Assembly: GCA_035515235.1 (NCBI GenBank)
Contig: DATJBS010000031.1
Coordinates: forward strand, 53,523-117,522
Reading direction: 5' to 3'
Source of the DNA: Chitinophagales bacterium
GTDB lineage: Bacteria > Bacteroidota > Bacteroidia > Chitinophagales > JADIYW01
DNA length: 64,000 nt
Below, piece by piece: positions 3,274 through 59,577 of this stretch. A model generated the notes under the pieces. That model did no database searches. It saw nothing but the letters and a program-made list of their open reading frames with translations, and was not told where the DNA came from. The position numbers were made by a program, and so were the translations under genes. Numbering within the stretch: position 1 is the stretch's first letter; each line of letters begins with the position of its first letter.

Positions 3274-5958
3274 ATGGAAGAATTGGACAATAACTCTTTA
3301 AATGAAGACTTGACAGGTCAGGAATCAATTATTTCTATTAGTGGAATGTACAAAAATTGGTTTCTGGATTATGCATCGTATGTAATATTAGAACGTGCAG
3401 TTCCAGCTGTATTAGATGGCTTCAAGCCTGTGCAGCGTAGGATATTGCATGCTATGAAGGAAATGGATGATGGCCGATTCAATAAGGTGGCAAACATCAT
3501 CGGTAGCACTATGCAATATCATCCGCATGGTGATGCTTCTATTGGTGATGCTATTGTCAATATCGGACAAAAGGATTTATTGATAGACTGTCAAGGAAAC
3601 TGGGGCGATATTCGTACCGGAGATAGAGCTGCAGCAGGTAGATATATTGAAGCAAGATTGTCCAAATTTGCTTTAGATGTAGCTTTTAATGCCGAAACCA
3701 CAGAATGGCAAATGTCATATGACGGCAGAAAAAGAGAGCCTGTTCATCTTCCAGTAAAATTCCCATTATTATTAGCTCAAGGTGCTGAAGGAATTGCAGT
3801 AGGATTGTCTACTAAAATTATCCCGCACAACTTCATTGAACTTATAGATGCGTCTATAGCTCATTTAAGAAAAAAGCCATTTGAATTAATGCCAGATTTT
3901 CTCACAGGAGGAATGGCAGATTGCCGGAATTATAATGATGGCAGACGAGGCGGTAAAATAAGAGTAAGAGCTAAAATTGAAGTTAGAGATAAGAAGACTT
4001 TAGCGATTACTGAGATTCCATTTAGTACGACTACTTCTAGCTTGATTGATTCTATTATCAAAGCAAATGATAAAGGGAAAATCAAAATCAAAAAAGTTAT
4101 TGATAACACGGCAAGAGATGTAGAAGTTCTTATAGAATTACATCCGAATGTTTCTACAAGTGTCACCGTAGATGCTTTATATGCATTTTCAGACTGTGAG
4201 GTTTCTGTTTCGCCCAATACTTGTGTGATTGTAGGCGACAAACCTATGTTTTTAGGAGCGTCAGATGTTTTGAGAATCTGTACAGATAGTACCGTTTATT
4301 TACTCAAGAGAGAATTAGAAATCAAACTAGGTCATCTTCAAGATAAATGGCATTTCTCTTCATTAGAAAAAATCTTCATTGAAAATAGAATTTATCGTGA
4401 CATAGAAGAGTGTGAGACTTGGGAAGCTGTCATCGAAGCAATTGATTTAGGATTAGAACCATTTAAGAAATTATTTTTTAGAGAAATTACAACAGATGAT
4501 ATTGTAAGATTGACAGAAATTAAAATCAAAAGGATATCAAAATTTGACACTTTTAAAGCAGATGAATACATTCTCCAACTAGAGAAAGATATAGAAGAAG
4601 TCAAACATCATTTAGAGCATTTGGTAACATATGCGATTGATTATTACAAGCGACTTAGAGAAAAATACGGTAAAGGAAGAGAGCGAAAAACATTGTTGAG
4701 TAGTTTCGACCAAGTTGAAGTCAAACAAGTAGCTGCCAATAATGAGAAACTGTATGTAAATAGAACAGAAGGTTTCGTTGGTTATGGAAAAGATATGAGA
4801 AAAGAAGAGTTCGTCATGGACTGTTCAGATATAGATGATGTCATCGTATTTCTCAAAAGTGGTGGATATAAAGTAGTTTCTATAAGTGATAAAGTCTTTG
4901 TAGGGAAAGATATTCTGTATGTGAATATTTGGAACAAAGGAGATGAAAGAATGACTTATAACGCCATTTATTTAGATGGCAAATCAGGTACCACTTATGC
5001 TAAAAGATTCAATGTCACTGGTGTAACTAGAGATAAAGAATACAATATCACAAAGGAAACACCACGCTCTAAATTATTATACTTCTCAGCAAATCCTAAC
5101 GGTGAAGCAGAGATTGTAAGCATACAATTATCTCAAGGTTGTTCAGCTAAAAAGAAAACTTTTGAATTCGGATTTTCAGATATTACCATAAAAGGAAAAA
5201 GCTCTCAAGGAAATCAAGTCACCAAATACCCTGTGAGAAAAGTGGAACAAAAATCTGTAGGGATTTCTACTTTGGGCGGTCTAGATATGTATATGGACGA
5301 AGAGGTAGGAAGATTGAATAAAGATAAAAGAGGTCGATTCCTAGGGAATTTTATCGGAGATGATAAGATACTCGTAGTTTTCAAAACTGGTGAATATATG
5401 TTGACCAATATTGAATTAACGAATAGATATGAATTGAAAGACATCTTAATTCTAGAGAAGTTTCAACCTAAAAAACCTCTATCTGTCATACATTATTACC
5501 CTTCTAAAAAGTGCTATTATGTCAAAAGATTTTTGATTGAAACCACTACTTTAGACCAGAAATATAGCTTTATAGCCGATGAGGCAGGAGCAGAGTTGAC
5601 CTTTATAACTTTAGTGAAAAATCCAATAGTCAAATACACTTTAGACTTAGGCAAAAAACAAATTAGCGAAGAAGAAGTAGCTCTAGCTGAATTAATTGAC
5701 GTGAAAGGTTGGAAAGCTATCGGTAATAAATTAGTAGCAGGAAAAATCAAAGAAGTCGTTCTGATTCCACCCGCTGAGGATGAAGAAGAGGACGATAGCG
5801 ATGATGATTCTAATGACCCGGACGGTGGTTCTGATAATGAACCTAATAGTGGAGGTGACAATAATCCTGCGAATGAAGAGGAAGAGCAAGCGTCAAGCTA
5901 TAATGTCGAATTAGAAATCACTAATTTTCAACAAGGAGAGCAAGGAAGTCTATTTTAA
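3274..5958 (+). CDS. parC: DNA topoisomerase IV subunit A (type IIA topoisomerase A subunit)
   Basis: YASYVILERAVPAVLDGFKPVQRRILHAM plus QYHPHGDASIGDAIV are type IIA A-subunit signatures. At 894 aa the length is Bacteroidota ParC-like. The C-terminal tail is acidic and low-complexity. Confidence 0.8.
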   Translation: MEELDNNSLNEDLTGQESIISISGMYKNWFLDYASYVILERAVPAVLDGFKPVQRRILHAMKEMDDGRFNKVANIIGSTMQYHPHGDASIGDAIVNIGQKDLLIDCQGNWGDIRTGDRAAAGRYIEARLSKFALDVAFNAETTEWQMSYDGRKREPVHLPVKFPLLLAQGAEGIAVGLSTKIIPHNFIELIDASIAHLRKKPFELMPDFLTGGMADCRNYNDGRRGGKIRVRAKIEVRDKKTLAITEIPFSTTTSSLIDSIIKANDKGKIKIKKVIDNTARDVEVLIELHPNVSTSVTVDALYAFSDCEVSVSPNTCVIVGDKPMFLGASDVLRICTDSTVYLLKRELEIKLGHLQDKWHFSSLEKIFIENRIYRDIEECETWEAVIEAIDLGLEPFKKLFFREITTDDIVRLTEIKIKRISKFDTFKADEYILQLEKDIEEVKHHLEHLVTYAIDYYKRLREKYGKGRERKTLLSSFDQVEVKQVAANNEKLYVNRTEGFVGYGKDMRKEEFVMDCSDIDDVIVFLKSGGYKVVSISDKVFVGKDILYVNIWNKGDERMTYNAIYLDGKSGTTYAKRFNVTGVTRDKEYNITKETPRSKLLYFSANPNGEAEIVSIQLSQGCSAKKKTFEFGFSDITIKGKSSQGNQVTKYPVRKVEQKSVGISTLGGLDMYMDEEVGRLNKDKRGRFLGNFIGDDKILVVFKTGEYMLTNIELTNRYELKDILILEKFQPKKPLSVIHYYPSKKCYYVKRFLIETTTLDQKYSFIADEAGAELTFITLVKNPIVKYTLDLGKKQISEEEVALAELIDVKGWKAIGNKLVAGKIKEVVLIPPAEDEEEDDSDDDSNDPDGGSDNEPNSGGDNNPANEEEEQASSYNVELEITNFQQGEQGSLF

Positions 5959-23279: not shown

Positions 23280-23547
23280 TGATGAAAAGTAATAAATTAT
23301 GATTGAAATCCTTAAAAAGTTACTTTTTTTAAATAAAATCGATACACTTGATATAACAATTTAAGTATTTTTTATAATGCTATAGTTTAGTAATCAATAG
23401 CTTATGTTATTTATATTTTTGATAACCTTTGTTTTACCATGTCACAAAATGTGTGAAAGTGATTTTTATGTTAGTTCAGTTTATCTTATTTTTGATGTAT
23501 CAATAACAATTAAAACAAATCACTAACCCAAACCCTCTTTTAGATTT

Positions 23548-23579
<32 letters not shown>

Positions 23580-23591
23580 ACCCAAACAAGT

Positions 23592-23629
23592 AAGCCTGCT
23601 ACGAGGGGTGCAGGCTTGCTATTTTTTTT
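23592..23629 (+). terminator. intrinsic terminator with no plus-strand ORF upstream
   Basis: Stem aagcctgc/gcaggctt (8 bp, 10-nt loop), then gcta plus T8. Confidence 0.65.
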
Positions 23630-56490: not shown

Positions 56491-56838
56491 TTAATGCTTA
56501 CGGCAGCAGCCATCCAATTTAGCAACTGATTCTGCAGGAGCTTTCATATCATCAGCATCGTAACCTGCATTGTTTATTGTTTTTCTGATAGCATCAGGAT
56601 GAATTTTATTGGCATCATAATCCACTGTAATAGTGTTCGCTTTAGCATCAATTTTCACTTTTTTTATTCCTTTGTTGGATCTCACATTGATATTAATATT
56701 GTTTCCACAACTACCGCATTGAAGACAATGGTCACAATAAATTTGTGTTTCTATTACAATAGTTTGAATGTTTGAGTTTTTTGCAAACACGCTACTAGAA
56801 AGTGCAGTTAATAATAAAGTGAATATGATTTTTTTCAT
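56491..56838 (-). CDS. secreted heavy-metal-associated (HMA)-like domain protein
   Basis: Signal peptide, a YCDHCLQCGSCGNN Cys cluster, an HMA-like core (ITVDYDANKIHPDAIRKTINNAGYDA), and a C-terminal GCCRKH. Confidence 0.65.
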   Translation of the reverse strand: MKKIIFTLLLTALSSSVFAKNSNIQTIVIETQIYCDHCLQCGSCGNNININVRSNKGIKKVKIDAKANTITVDYDANKIHPDAIRKTINNAGYDADDMKAPAESVAKLDGCCRKH

Positions 56839-56909: not shown

Positions 56910-57281
56910 TTATATGGACATTTCTTGAAATTTCTTTCTGAATTCTAGTGGGCTTTTAATGTTAGGAAATACTTCTTTTGTTCCACCTGAACCTACAATA
57001 CTTAGAGATCCGTAGCCAAGAATTCTACCTAAAATACTTTGATCTACATTAACGCTTTCAATTTTTGAATGGTTCATTTCAAATGTTTTCCTGCTAATTA
57101 ATCCAGTTTTAATGATCACTCGTTTATTAGTGACTGCAAATTCGTCTGTATATCTAGCAATTAATGGTATTGTGAATAACGAAAAAATGGCTTTAAAGCT
57201 ACAGAAGATGATCCAATGATAGGAGGTTTCTAACTCTACGTGTTCGTTTTTAACTAGATTGCTATTGATGTAATGGCCCAT
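56910..57281 (-). CDS. bPH_2 (YdbT/DUF304-like) membrane PH-domain protein
   Basis: Two N-terminal TM segments, then TNKRVIIKTGLISRKTFEMNHSKIESVNVDQSILGRILGYGSL. Confidence 0.7.
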   Translation of the reverse strand: MGHYINSNLVKNEHVELETSYHWIIFCSFKAIFSLFTIPLIARYTDEFAVTNKRVIIKTGLISRKTFEMNHSKIESVNVDQSILGRILGYGSLSIVGSGGTKEVFPNIKSPLEFRKKFQEMSI

Positions 57282-57352: not shown

Positions 57353-57882
57353 TTACTTTTCACAAATAGAGCAATTGGATTCTCCAGTTAAATGTCCATT
57401 TTTATCAAATTCATATTTACAACATTCGTTGAATCTTTTCTTTAAAATTTCTTTTACTCTTCTAATTCTTACTTTTACATTTTCAAGACTGATGTCTAAT
57501 GTGGCTGCTACCTCTTTTTGTTTTAGGCCTTTTATATAAACTAGTTCAATCACTTCTTTGTAAATCTCGGGCAGTTCATTGATGAATTTATCAAAACAGC
57601 AGATATGTTGATATTGTTGAAGAGCGATCTCTTGATTGCTGTCTATTTCGTCTGTATATACAGTTTCATTATTGAAATAATTGATGATTTCATTTCTTGC
57701 AATTTGAAAACCCAAGCTCTCACTTTTTCTTCATTTTTAAGACTAGAAAGATTTAAATGAATTTTCAAAAAAGTATTTTGGAAAACATCATTTGCAGCAT
57801 TTTTACTCTTTACCTTTTTAAGGATAAAAAAGTAAAGTTCTTGATTGTAATTATTCCAAATCGTTTGCGTTTCCATCTTCAA
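57353..57882 (-). pseudogene. ECF-type sigma-70 factor with a Cys-rich C-terminal extension, split by a 1-nt frameshift in an A4/T4 run (57707-57710)
   Basis: The region-2-like N-terminal ORF (57643..57882) ends ...EEKVRAWVF. The region-4-like C-terminal ORF (57353..57715) starts GFQIARNEIINYF. One extra T restores W-V-F-Q-I-A-R-N. The tail reads CCKYEFDKNGHLTGESNCSIC. Confidence 0.75.
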
Positions 57883-57916
57883 AAATAAATAAAGCTTAGC
57901 CCTCAGACTAAGCTTT
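57881..57916 (-). terminator. hairpin plus T-rich tract between the Cys-rich small ORF and the sigma gene
   Basis: aaagcttag/ctaagcttt 9-bp stem (57891-57899 and 57908-57916). The minus-strand continuation is atttattttt. Confidence 0.5.
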
Positions 57917-57925
57917 TAGAAATTA

Positions 57926-58036
57926 TCAACATTCACATTTTGTACATTCGCATTTATCACAAGGACATTCGCTTTCTTTACAATTTTTGCAATTACATTT
58001 TGTGCAATCACAATCGGTACATTTACATTTTCCCAT
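57926..58036 (-). CDS. untracked 36-aa cysteine-rich (13 Cys) metallothionein-like small ORF
   Basis: Manual translation of the minus strand gives MGKCKCTDCDCTKCNCKNCKESECPCDKCECTKCEC-stop. It has a regular CxC/CxxC pattern, lies in the same orientation as the sigma gene, and is followed by a hairpin. Confidence 0.45.
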   Translation of the reverse strand: MGKCKCTDCDCTKCNCKNCKESECPCDKCECTKCEC

Positions 58037-58115
58037 AACAGTAGTTTTTTATTGTTCATTAAGGAGACAGTAGAAGACTAGAAAAGATACATTATTTTTG
58101 ATTTTGTCTTGCTTT

Positions 58116-58160: not shown

Positions 58161-58335
58161 GCTCCTACGGAGCTAGTTTGATGATGATTCTTTTTGGTTT
58201 ACAAACGGTTGGGCTTCTACGGAGCTAGATTGGTGGTGTTTTTCGTTTGCAAAAAAGTATGGTTCCTACGGAGCAGAATTGAGTTTTCACTTTTAAAAGG
58301 CTTTGTTTAAGTTTTTTTATTACTCTGTAGGAGCT
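58161..58335. repeat. REP-like hairpin cluster, 3' side of the RAYT gene
   Basis: gctcCTACggagc at 58161-58173, gcttCTACggagc at 58213-58225, gttcCTACggagc at 58262-58274 and an inverted ctctGTAGgag at 58324-58335. Most carry a (t)tacaaacNgt flank. Confidence 0.85.
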
Positions 58336-58351
58336 AACTGTTTGTTCTGCT

Positions 58352-58813
58352 TTATTCAATCCATTCAAAGAGATATTTTTCATTGTATTCAATTTCATAT
58401 CTTTCTAACATGTCAATATATTCTTTCTTGAATGTTTTGGCTTTATGGTGTTCTTCTTGATTCAATATATACTTGACCACATAATCTATTTGGCTTTTAG
58501 CATATGAAAAAGCGCCATAACCTTCTTGCCAATTGAATTTACCCATTATCCAATTATTGTCATTAATGTATTTGGAGGAGCCTGCCTTAATATCTCTTAC
58601 TAAATTAGAAATTGAAATGTCTGGTTTCATACCCAACAAAATATGAACGTGGTCAGGCATTGCAAAAATTGCTAACATTTTCTGATCTCTATTTTGGACT
58701 ATACCTGTAATGTATTTATGTAATTCTTCTCTCTTGTTTTTTGAAATAAAATTTTGTCTTCCTTTTACGGCAAATACAATTTGGATATAGATTTGGGTGT
58801 AGGTGTTAGGCAT
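58352..58813 (-). mobile_element. IS200-like Y1 (HUH) transposase of the REP-associated (RAYT) type
   Basis: HUH motif in MPDHVHILLG. The conserved C-terminal region YILNQEEHH is present. The gene is 153 aa, a single gene with no tnpB, and is flanked by hairpin repeats. Confidence 0.8.
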
Positions 58814-58834
58814 ATTTGTTGATTTTAATAGGTC

Positions 58835-59090
58835 GCTCCTCCGGAGCTAGATTGGTGGTGGATGCTTTTTGGTTACAAACCGTATGCTCCTACGGAGCAT
58901 AATCGAATTGATAATTTTAAATGTGCAAATCTTATAATTCTAATTTACAAACAAAATTTCATTTTTATCAATAAACGGCATCAGACATACGGGGCTGAAT
59001 TGATTGTATTTTTTGTTTTTATGTATTGTTTGAATAGGTGTTCTTCATTATTGCTCCGTAGGAGCACACCGTTTGTAGCTCCGTAGGAGC
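58835..59090. repeat. REP-like hairpin cluster, 5' side of the RAYT gene
   Basis: gctcctCCggagc at 58835-58847, gctcCTACggagc at 58886-58898, and gctccGTAGgagc at 59053-59065 and 59078-59090. The string ggagctagattggtggtg recurs at 58221-58238 and 58843-58860. Confidence 0.85.
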
Positions 59091-59163: not shown

Positions 59164-59577
59164 TTATTTTTGTTGACGTTTGATTTCTTTACCTAATCTT
59201 ACGAATTGCCAAAAACCCTTTGCATCTTCTGGATAAGGGATTCCAATAGAATCTATATTTTTAAATTCTTTGTTTTGCTCTCCGTAAATACGAGCGTGCA
59301 AAACGGCAGAGATATAATCTAATAAATCAATTGATGTAAAGATGAGTTTGAAATCATCTTGTAGCTCGTCATTATTTGTAGCAAAACAAAGATTTCCATG
59401 TTTGTTAGCAGGCACAAATGTTAAACCTGTTTTTTGAACGATTTGGTTGATGGTAGTTCTATCGAGATTGATTAATGTCTCTATATCATTTCTATCAATA
59501 AAATCCGATTGGCAGATGTACTTGGTTTCAGTAATCTGCTTGAATAGATCTTGTGTGATTAGAAATTCTTGGTTCAT
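59164..59577 (-). CDS. 137-aa ORF resembling the extreme C-terminus of Type ISP/IIG restriction-modification enzymes (possible gene remnant)
   Basis: FTSIDLLDYISAVLHARIYGEQNKEFKNIDSIGIPYPEDAKGFWQFVRLGKEI resembles the conserved tail of those enzymes (recalled pattern ..DYiYavLhs..Yr..y.efLk.dfPRiP...d...F..l..lG..L). Confidence 0.35.
   Translation of the reverse strand: MNQEFLITQDLFKQITETKYICQSDFIDRNDIETLINLDRTTINQIVQKTGLTFVPANKHGNLCFATNNDELQDDFKLIFTSIDLLDYISAVLHARIYGEQNKEFKNIDSIGIPYPEDAKGFWQFVRLGKEIKRQQK

Follow-up and report, generated by a model that had tools for sequence, protein, structure and literature searches.

A cysteine-lattice micro-gene paired with a CorE/SigZ-type sigma factor gene in Bacteroidota, encoding a candidate metallothionein-like peptide

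The window analysed here is a 64-kb stretch of DNA from a Chitinophagales bacterium (contig DATJBS010000031.1). Its subject is a cysteine (Cys)-rich micro-ORF (open reading frame, ORF) located on the minus strand at 57926..58036, directly upstream of the gene for an extracytoplasmic function (ECF) sigma factor. The ORF is a real protein-coding gene under purifying selection in its Cys frame and belongs to a conserved unit formed by a promoter motif, the peptide gene, a hairpin and the sigma gene, this being the whole of the unit because the genes beyond the pair vary. The peptide is regarded, with moderate confidence, as a metallothionein-like metal-binding peptide whose gene opens a two-cistron module shared with the gene of a CorE/SigZ-type sigma factor; the composition and context of the peptide suggest the binding of metal. 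The module in the window is probably decaying or inactive, though the family is clearly functional elsewhere.

The ORF extends from an ATG to a TGA (stop at 57928..57926), followed directly 3' by a second in-frame stop, TAA at 57925..57923, which is the ancestral one. Its translation, MGKCKCTDCDCTKCNCKNCKESECPCDKCECTKCEC, comprises 36 residues including 13 Cys, exactly as proposed in a first-pass annotation of this DNA, and contains no aromatic residue and no hydrophobic core, as that annotation also held. The Cys residues form the lattice CxCxxCxCxxCxCxxC, a four-residue linker and CxCxxCxCxxCxC. The window has 33% G+C and its Cys trinucleotides amount to 2.7%; at this frequency 36 codons would hold 13 or more Cys with a binomial probability of about 5e-12, and about 6e-7 such windows are expected by chance in 64 kb on both strands. 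Stop-free stretches of 36 codons elsewhere in the window contain at most 7 Cys, and the Cys share of the long ORFs is 0.85%. Tandem Repeats Finder identified in the ORF DNA only a weak 15-/21-nucleotide (nt) periodicity of 1.9-2.5 copies, so the ORF DNA is not a simple repeat. The sole other Cys-rich stretch in the window (23503-23618, minus strand) is a short (TG)n-type simple repeat reading CVCVCV, which is repeat noise and not a gene.

The peptide was not found in protein databases. A word-indexed homology search, run with the peptide padded to 40 residues and with a 49-residue variant, gave zero candidates; an exact-sequence look-up of ten members, including that of the window, found none among 15 billion predicted proteins; and phmmer, run exhaustively against 1.84 billion representative proteins, returned 0 matches, a result to which the composition filters of HMMER may contribute. 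Judging by the DNA-level results, the genes are simply uncalled. Since the peptide is absent from protein databases, the search was routed through the neighbouring sigma gene. The copies come from four loci reached via sigma homologues, 11 found by a DNA-pattern scan of metagenomes, one found by a genome scan and four named genomes reached via the sigma gene. The latter are Kaistella flava (CP040442.1, near position 896,000), Roseivirga echinicomitans, Portibacter lacus and Algibacter sp. L1A34 (CP047029.1, near 1,359,800), where the peptide ORF is present and unannotated. In total 21 distinct nucleotide sequences and 20 distinct peptides were recovered, from Chitinophagales, Flavobacteriales, Cytophagales and Saprospirales. 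The scan of genome contigs with a Cys-only lattice pattern returned mostly poly-Cys or periodic repeats and at least one true match, L089. The metagenome scan also returned other Cys-lattice ORFs with no link to this sigma type (L178, L137, L168, L165, L132 and L131). In L178 (1-141, minus strand; oriented 3972-4112) it is a 46-residue peptide with 15 Cys, MGCDKCTKCKCNCKKCTKCECNCEKCNCNCEKSDCKNCTCNK..., and the remaining ones are larger proteins of 90-219 residues with repeat domains of the CKCxxCKC type. These ORFs may represent further unannotated metal-binding families.

The family norm is a peptide of 37 residues with 14 Cys, arranged in two halves of seven and ending in CC. The length is exactly 37 codons in 18 copies and the Cys core has no indels. 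The lattice, which begins at residue 4, is invariant: CxCxxCxCxxCxCxxC-x4-CxCxxCxCxxCxCC. Among 17 copies compared, K, N, E, T and D make up most of the non-Cys residues, with few Leu, Ile or Val and a single Phe as the only aromatic residue. T7 and N18 are invariant. The metagenome pattern demanded two Lys codons, so the invariance of K13 and K28 among those matches is partly an ascertainment artefact; the Algibacter copy, found via the sigma gene, has T at position 28.

The codon differences among the same 17 copies reveal which frame is selected. At Cys codons they are distributed over positions 1:2:3 as 0:0:616, that is, as switching between TGT and TGC only, and at non-Cys codons as 594:606:1169. 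The Cys frame has a median ratio of nonsynonymous to synonymous rates (dN/dS) of 0.13, its non-Cys codons taken separately one of 0.34, and an overlapping frame one of 1.26. The latter is a 47-residue ORF (57916..58059) that gene callers picked instead in L001 and L002, two Logan assemblies. The first-pass annotation had mentioned a chance ORF in TGT/ACA-rich DNA as an alternative, to which this overlapping frame as the real gene may be added. The choice of the callers and the weak 15-/21-nt periodicity would speak for such a reading, but the chance expectation is about 6e-7, the beginning of the overlapping frame is interrupted by stop codons in L005 and L006, and the dN/dS of this frame, 1.26, stands against 0.13. 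It is effectively refuted. Loss of the Cys frame in related genomes, the outcome set against the proposal from the beginning, was examined as well; the relatives keep the frame, under purifying selection.

One copy departs from the common arrangement. L089 (546-695, plus strand), in the Flavobacteriales metagenome-assembled genome CAYQNU010000001.1, is a stand-alone copy with an N-terminal extension of nine residues and its own terminator. No adjacent sigma gene and no GTATC-N17-GTCT motif were found at this locus, so it is presumably regulated differently, and its stand-alone state argues for a function of the peptide on its own.

The second gene of the module encodes an ECF sigma factor with a Cys tail. 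In the window it is split in two parts on the minus strand. The N-terminal part (57643..57876) contains region 2, as indicated by Pfam Sigma70_r2, by SigZ-type NCBIfam matches and by alignment to homologues of 174 residues; its start was placed by homology at the ATG 57876..57874, and its frame stops early through a frameshift. The C-terminal part (57353..57715) matches Pfam Sigma70_r4_2 at 2.2e-13 and SigZ-type NCBIfam models, and comprises region 4, preceded by a linker that holds CC and followed by a C-terminal extension rich in Cys (CC...CxxC). The best NCBIfam matches of the gene are to SigZ. The C-terminal part has 209 homologues and the intact length is 174-175 residues. Six Cys are invariant in 22 sigma homologues: the CC of the linker (ICCFDKF, not CxC), and CC plus CxxC in the short C-terminal extension. 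ECF238, formerly ECF44 and ECF24, is the group of CorE and CorE2 of Myxococcus xanthus and SigZ of Bacillus subtilis. The sigma factor of the module appears to be of this CorE/SigZ (ECF238) type, as assigned by features rather than by a formal ECF classifier. Members CorE and CorE2 are activated by metal via such Cys and have no anti-sigma factor, and the characterised CorE/SigZ relatives respond to Cu, Cd and Zn (PMC7826278, PMC8999054).

The pairing of both genes is close to obligate. The sigma gene starts about 40-50 nt 3' of the peptide stop in 14 of 15 evaluable loci, and the arrangement persists as sigma identity drops to 48%. In the opposite direction, the peptide is present in all eight loci picked by sigma homology alone; four of these, with sigma homologues at 75-90% identity, all have the Cys-rich ORF immediately upstream. 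The position of the ORF directly upstream of a Cys-tailed sigma factor had been described in the first-pass annotation and is confirmed by the Pfam and NCBIfam matches. The near-obligate character of the pairing, with the regulatory reading that it opens, had not been foreseen.

Upstream of the peptide gene a promoter-like motif was identified on the minus strand at 58063..58090, consisting of GTATC (58090..58086), a 17-nt spacer and GTCTCC (58068..58063). GTATC-N17-GTCT recurs in an unchanged register at each of the 20 sigma-linked loci, once per locus, and occurs once in the 64-kb window. The fuller layout shared upstream is TGTATC(Y)TTT, 17 nt from GTATC to GTCT(A/C)C, and an element rich in A that lies about 26 nt ahead of the ATG. 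ECF-type promoters have a -35/-10 pair of comparable geometry, and by this general geometry the motif would be an ECF-type promoter. The A-rich leader element of the window, TGAACAATAAAA, lies at 58047..58058 (minus strand) and ends 10 nt before the ATG. Across the aligned loci it reads (T/A)(G/A)AAC..ATAAAA, and a similar one is present in the stand-alone L089. It may be a translation initiation region, in a phylum that does not use Shine-Dalgarno sequences, or a part of the promoter.

Between both genes there is a hairpin with a T-rich tail (57881..57916, minus strand): the hairpin, at 57916..57891, has an 11-bp stem and a 4-nt loop, and the tail occupies 57890..57881. A hairpin 3' of the ORF had been indicated in the first-pass annotation; it was found, with its stem counted as 11 pairs and followed by a T-run. 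18 of 18 loci contain it, with free energies from -10.6 to -21.8 kcal/mol, and it begins 2-11 nt past the stop codon. The consensus fold of 15 loci contains 12 pairs, 6 of them with compensatory double changes. The T-run follows in most loci and ends about 5-10 nt before the sigma ATG. The element resembles an intrinsic terminator placed between the peptide and the sigma genes. The T-run is so close to the sigma ATG that no space for a separate promoter is evident, hence expression of the sigma factor probably relies on read-through of the hairpin; alternatively, the T-run may overlap with a promoter of the housekeeping type (TAnnTTTG-like in some loci). No RNA family of Rfam matched the locus.

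These elements suggest a circuit. The six invariant Cys would allow the sigma factor to be activated by a thiophilic metal or by the redox state of a metal, as in CorE and CorE2, and the activated factor would transcribe its own operon from the GTATC-N17-GTCT promoter. The hairpin would end most transcripts after the peptide gene, a fraction reading through into the sigma gene, and with this partial termination the peptide would be produced in excess of the sigma factor. The peptide would then form thiolate clusters with Cu(I), Zn(II) or Cd(II), and the lowered free metal would switch the sigma factor off, the result being an inducible cytoplasmic sink with negative feedback. In this model the use of the motif by this sigma factor, the partial stop at the hairpin, the translation of the peptide, its binding of metal and its choice of metal are inferred steps.

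Several properties of the peptide are those of metallothioneins: a low mass, 13 Cys in 36 residues in the window and 14 in 37 in the family (36-38% Cys), CxC and CxxC motifs with a terminal CC, Lys, Asn, Asp, Glu and Thr as spacers, two halves joined by a short linker, and few or no aromatic or hydrophobic core residues. Examples of the class are the mammalian beta-domain, with the segment CKCKECKCTSC, and the fungal seven-Cys Cu-metallothioneins. The gene adjoins, and is apparently co-transcribed with, a CorE/SigZ-type sigma gene, which may link it to a metal sensor. Unlike metallothioneins, the peptide is shorter than most, has a strictly periodic lattice, is tied to a sigma gene and shows no detectable sequence or profile homology to them.

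Among bacterial proteins the closest in description are SmtA/BmtA and MymT, also small, cytoplasmic, Cys-rich and under a dedicated metal-sensing regulator (here by inference). SmtA/BmtA have about 55 residues, His ligands and a zinc-finger-like fold, and SmtA is controlled by SmtB, a repressor, whereas the regulator here would be an ECF sigma factor encoded in the same module. The difference from SmtA/BmtA claimed in the first-pass annotation is borne out: the corresponding family, Metallothio_Pro, gave no match in Pfam or NCBIfam even at E up to 10, the peptides have 36-37 residues, and the window peptide has no His. MymT of Mycobacterium tuberculosis is under RicR (PMC10141476), and its likeness to the peptide is one of description.

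Other results weigh against the interpretation as a metal buffer. The claim of a metallothionein-like nature holds for composition and motifs (Cys content and lattice) and fails for homology to any metallothionein family in Pfam, the Protein Data Bank (PDB) and BLASTP. Pfam and NCBIfam gave no family match to the window peptide; a Pfam scan of 20 members had as best result E=0.72 to Metallothio_Euk in one of the 20; a search of the PDB with the family profile, taken to E up to 10, came back empty; and a BLASTP comparison with human MT2A gave E=0.45, that is, no homology. The AlphaFold model of the peptide is confident-looking and without secondary structure (predicted local distance difference test, pLDDT, 82.8; predicted template modelling score, pTM, 0.40), and no structural neighbours were found for it. 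To these are added the CC of the sigma linker, which in CorE (former ECF44 subset) is CxC, and the assignment of the sigma type by features. Further copies of the promoter motif that could mark a regulon were not found in the window or the loci, and the genes flanking the module are mostly unrelated to metals. Finally, simple storage proteins are seldom bound in this near-obligate way to a regulator, and the linkage agrees with a regulatory role at least equally well.

A regulatory role would make the peptide primarily a partner of the sigma factor: a micro anti-sigma factor, a co-sensor or a metal relay acting on the Cys-rich extension, perhaps sharing a metal cluster with the sigma factor and setting its activation threshold. 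We hold this to be rather unlikely, with weighty points on both sides. A near-obligate pairing in both directions (14/15 and 8/8) at a fixed spacing would suit such a partner, as would flanking genes so variable that the pair is left as the functional unit; yet L089 has no sigma gene beside it. As a rule an ECF sigma factor shares its transcript with its regulator, and ECF238 has no anti-sigma factor, but the genes of anti-sigma factors usually lie downstream of their sigma gene and not upstream, as the peptide gene does. The constraint on the non-Cys positions (dN/dS 0.34, with T7 and N18 invariant) exceeds the apparent need of generic chelation, and a complementary surface is provided by the sigma factor through its six invariant Cys; against this, CorE and CorE2 operate without any partner (PMC7826278, PMC8999054). 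In a more specific version, slightly less probable again, the peptide would be the missing regulator, which loaded with metal would join the six Cys of the sigma factor in a thiolate cluster spanning both molecules, the pair and not the sigma factor alone acting as a metal or redox sensor and the partial terminator setting the dosage of the peptide.

A cis-acting leader peptide is a still weaker candidate. The speed of the ribosome over 14 Cys codons, dependent on Cys-tRNA or thiol supply, or its arrival at the stop codon would steer the formation of the terminator or the access to the sigma start codon, the product itself being incidental. The succession of a short ORF, a hairpin with T-run and a regulated gene is that of an attenuator, and in all loci the hairpin begins within the ribosome footprint of the stop codon; however, no antiterminator pairing between the ORF and the 5' arm of the hairpin is conserved (0 pairs in 9 of 18 loci), and Rfam gave no leader match. 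Selection on the non-Cys codons and on the exact spacing of the lattice also speaks against an incidental product, as does L089, an ORF with a terminator and nothing downstream on that strand. Attenuators formed by Cys-responsive short ORFs exist in mycobacteria (bioRxiv 10.1101/834739). There the polycysteine ORFs have consecutive Cys codons, are leaderless, precede genes of cysteine metabolism, and a duplex hides the following gene's ribosome-binding site (bioRxiv 10.1101/834739). The module shares with them an unannotated Cys-rich first cistron followed by an RNA structure upstream of the target. It differs in its Cys codons, spaced in a lattice and consecutive at the terminal CC only, in a peptide that is itself selected, in a downstream gene for an ECF sigma factor (14/15 loci) instead of cysteine metabolism, and in the lack of a conserved alternative pairing. 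Occlusion of the hairpin by a terminating ribosome is a conceivable simple alternative.

A precursor of a ribosomally synthesized and post-translationally modified peptide (RiPP), the other alternative raised in the first-pass annotation, is very improbable. The small size, the Cys content and the conserved core resemble such precursors in composition only; the neighbours of the module vary and include no conserved gene for a maturase, radical-SAM protein, cyclase, protease or exporter, and no division in leader and core is seen, as the lattice starts at residue 4. Reading the TGA codons as selenocysteine, with the hairpin as a selenocysteine insertion sequence, is likewise very improbable. 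The TGA is located exactly at a conserved Cys site in two independent copies (codon 37 in the window, codon 36 in L191), with a hairpin within about 10-15 nt; but TGA is the only stop reached in one step from a Cys codon, the hairpin is equally present in copies without TGA, the next Cys codon of L191 has drifted to TAT as after a true stop, and no tRNA-Sec was identified in the window. Use of selenocysteine is rare in the phylum.

The metallothionein-like reading, if true, would provide a compact scaffold of 14 thiols with possible use in biosensing or bioremediation and would change the annotation of metal tolerance in marine and soil Bacteroidota. A regulatory partner, if true, would be a new way to control an ECF sigma factor. 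Regulation of ECF238 is understood for two myxobacterial proteins only, and the group now gains a conserved partner present in cultured strains. On CorE, CorE2 and SigZ, the literature found on the group does not mention an upstream Cys-rich micro-ORF (PMC7826278, PMC8999054). A literature search of incomplete coverage found neither a Cys-rich small ORF tied to ECF238 nor a metallothionein of Bacteroidota. What is new is a metallothionein-like family that is independent of homology, and its hard-wired coupling to an ECF sigma factor is unprecedented. To our knowledge few bacterial metallothionein families exist, and we know of none in Bacteroidota. The gene, strongly selected and widespread, stayed invisible owing to its length of 37 codons.

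The copy in the window shows two lesions. Its TGA stands where 19 of 20 relatives carry TGT or TGC as the last Cys codon, and all relatives but one end in C-x-C-C-stop. The exception, L191 (603-734, plus strand), has an independent change from Cys to TGA at codon 36, followed by TAT TAA. Either the last one or two Cys seem to be dispensable or the copies with TGA seem to be decaying. The second lesion is a 1-nt deletion in the sigma gene (57707..57710, minus strand), where the window reads GGGT-TTTC and the relatives GGGTGTTTC or GGGTATTTC (GGGT[G/A]TTTC). It splits the gene (57353-57882, minus strand) in ORFs of 79 and 120 residues, compared with intact homologues of 174 residues. The same split gene was found in L001 and L002, which are two independent Logan assemblies, and the NCBI protein record contains the 120-residue part only. 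The sigma gene is probably a pseudogene in this lineage, and on account of both changes the module of the window is probably inactive. A programmed frameshift was considered and rejected, with no zero-frame X-XXY-YYZ slippery heptamer and with relatives whose gene is uninterrupted.

The neighbouring genes vary among loci. In the window the module is followed on the minus strand by a bPH_2 membrane protein (56910..57281), which is next to the module only here and in the closest relatives L003 and L004, and by a secreted HMA/CopZ-like metal-binding protein (56491..56838) with the same limited distribution. The latter has Cys beyond the usual CxxC (CDHCLQCGSCG) and a C-terminal tail GCCRKH. In L005 (3668-7515, minus strand) the module lies beside a cluster of multicopper oxidase, SHOCT, DUF305 and DUF3347 genes, a typical copper-resistance neighbourhood and the strongest contextual hint at copper. 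Neighbours in other loci include a glyoxalase-like protein and a TonB receptor with PepSY_TM, among others.

On the other side of the module an IS200/Y1-transposase gene was identified at 58352-58813, with a weaker match to the tyrosine transposases associated with repetitive extragenic palindromic (REP) elements, known as RAYT. A 15-nt repeat of palindromic type, TAGCTCCGTAGGAGC, occurs around it in eight copies, distributed over both flanks, where chance would give 0.32 (58161-59090, both strands). The ensemble resembles a RAYT accompanied by its REP elements, inserted immediately upstream of the peptide promoter. Beyond it, a 137-residue ORF (59164-59577, minus strand) has its only match in the specificity domain at the C-terminal end of Type ISP restriction enzymes and is probably a gene fragment beside the transposase.

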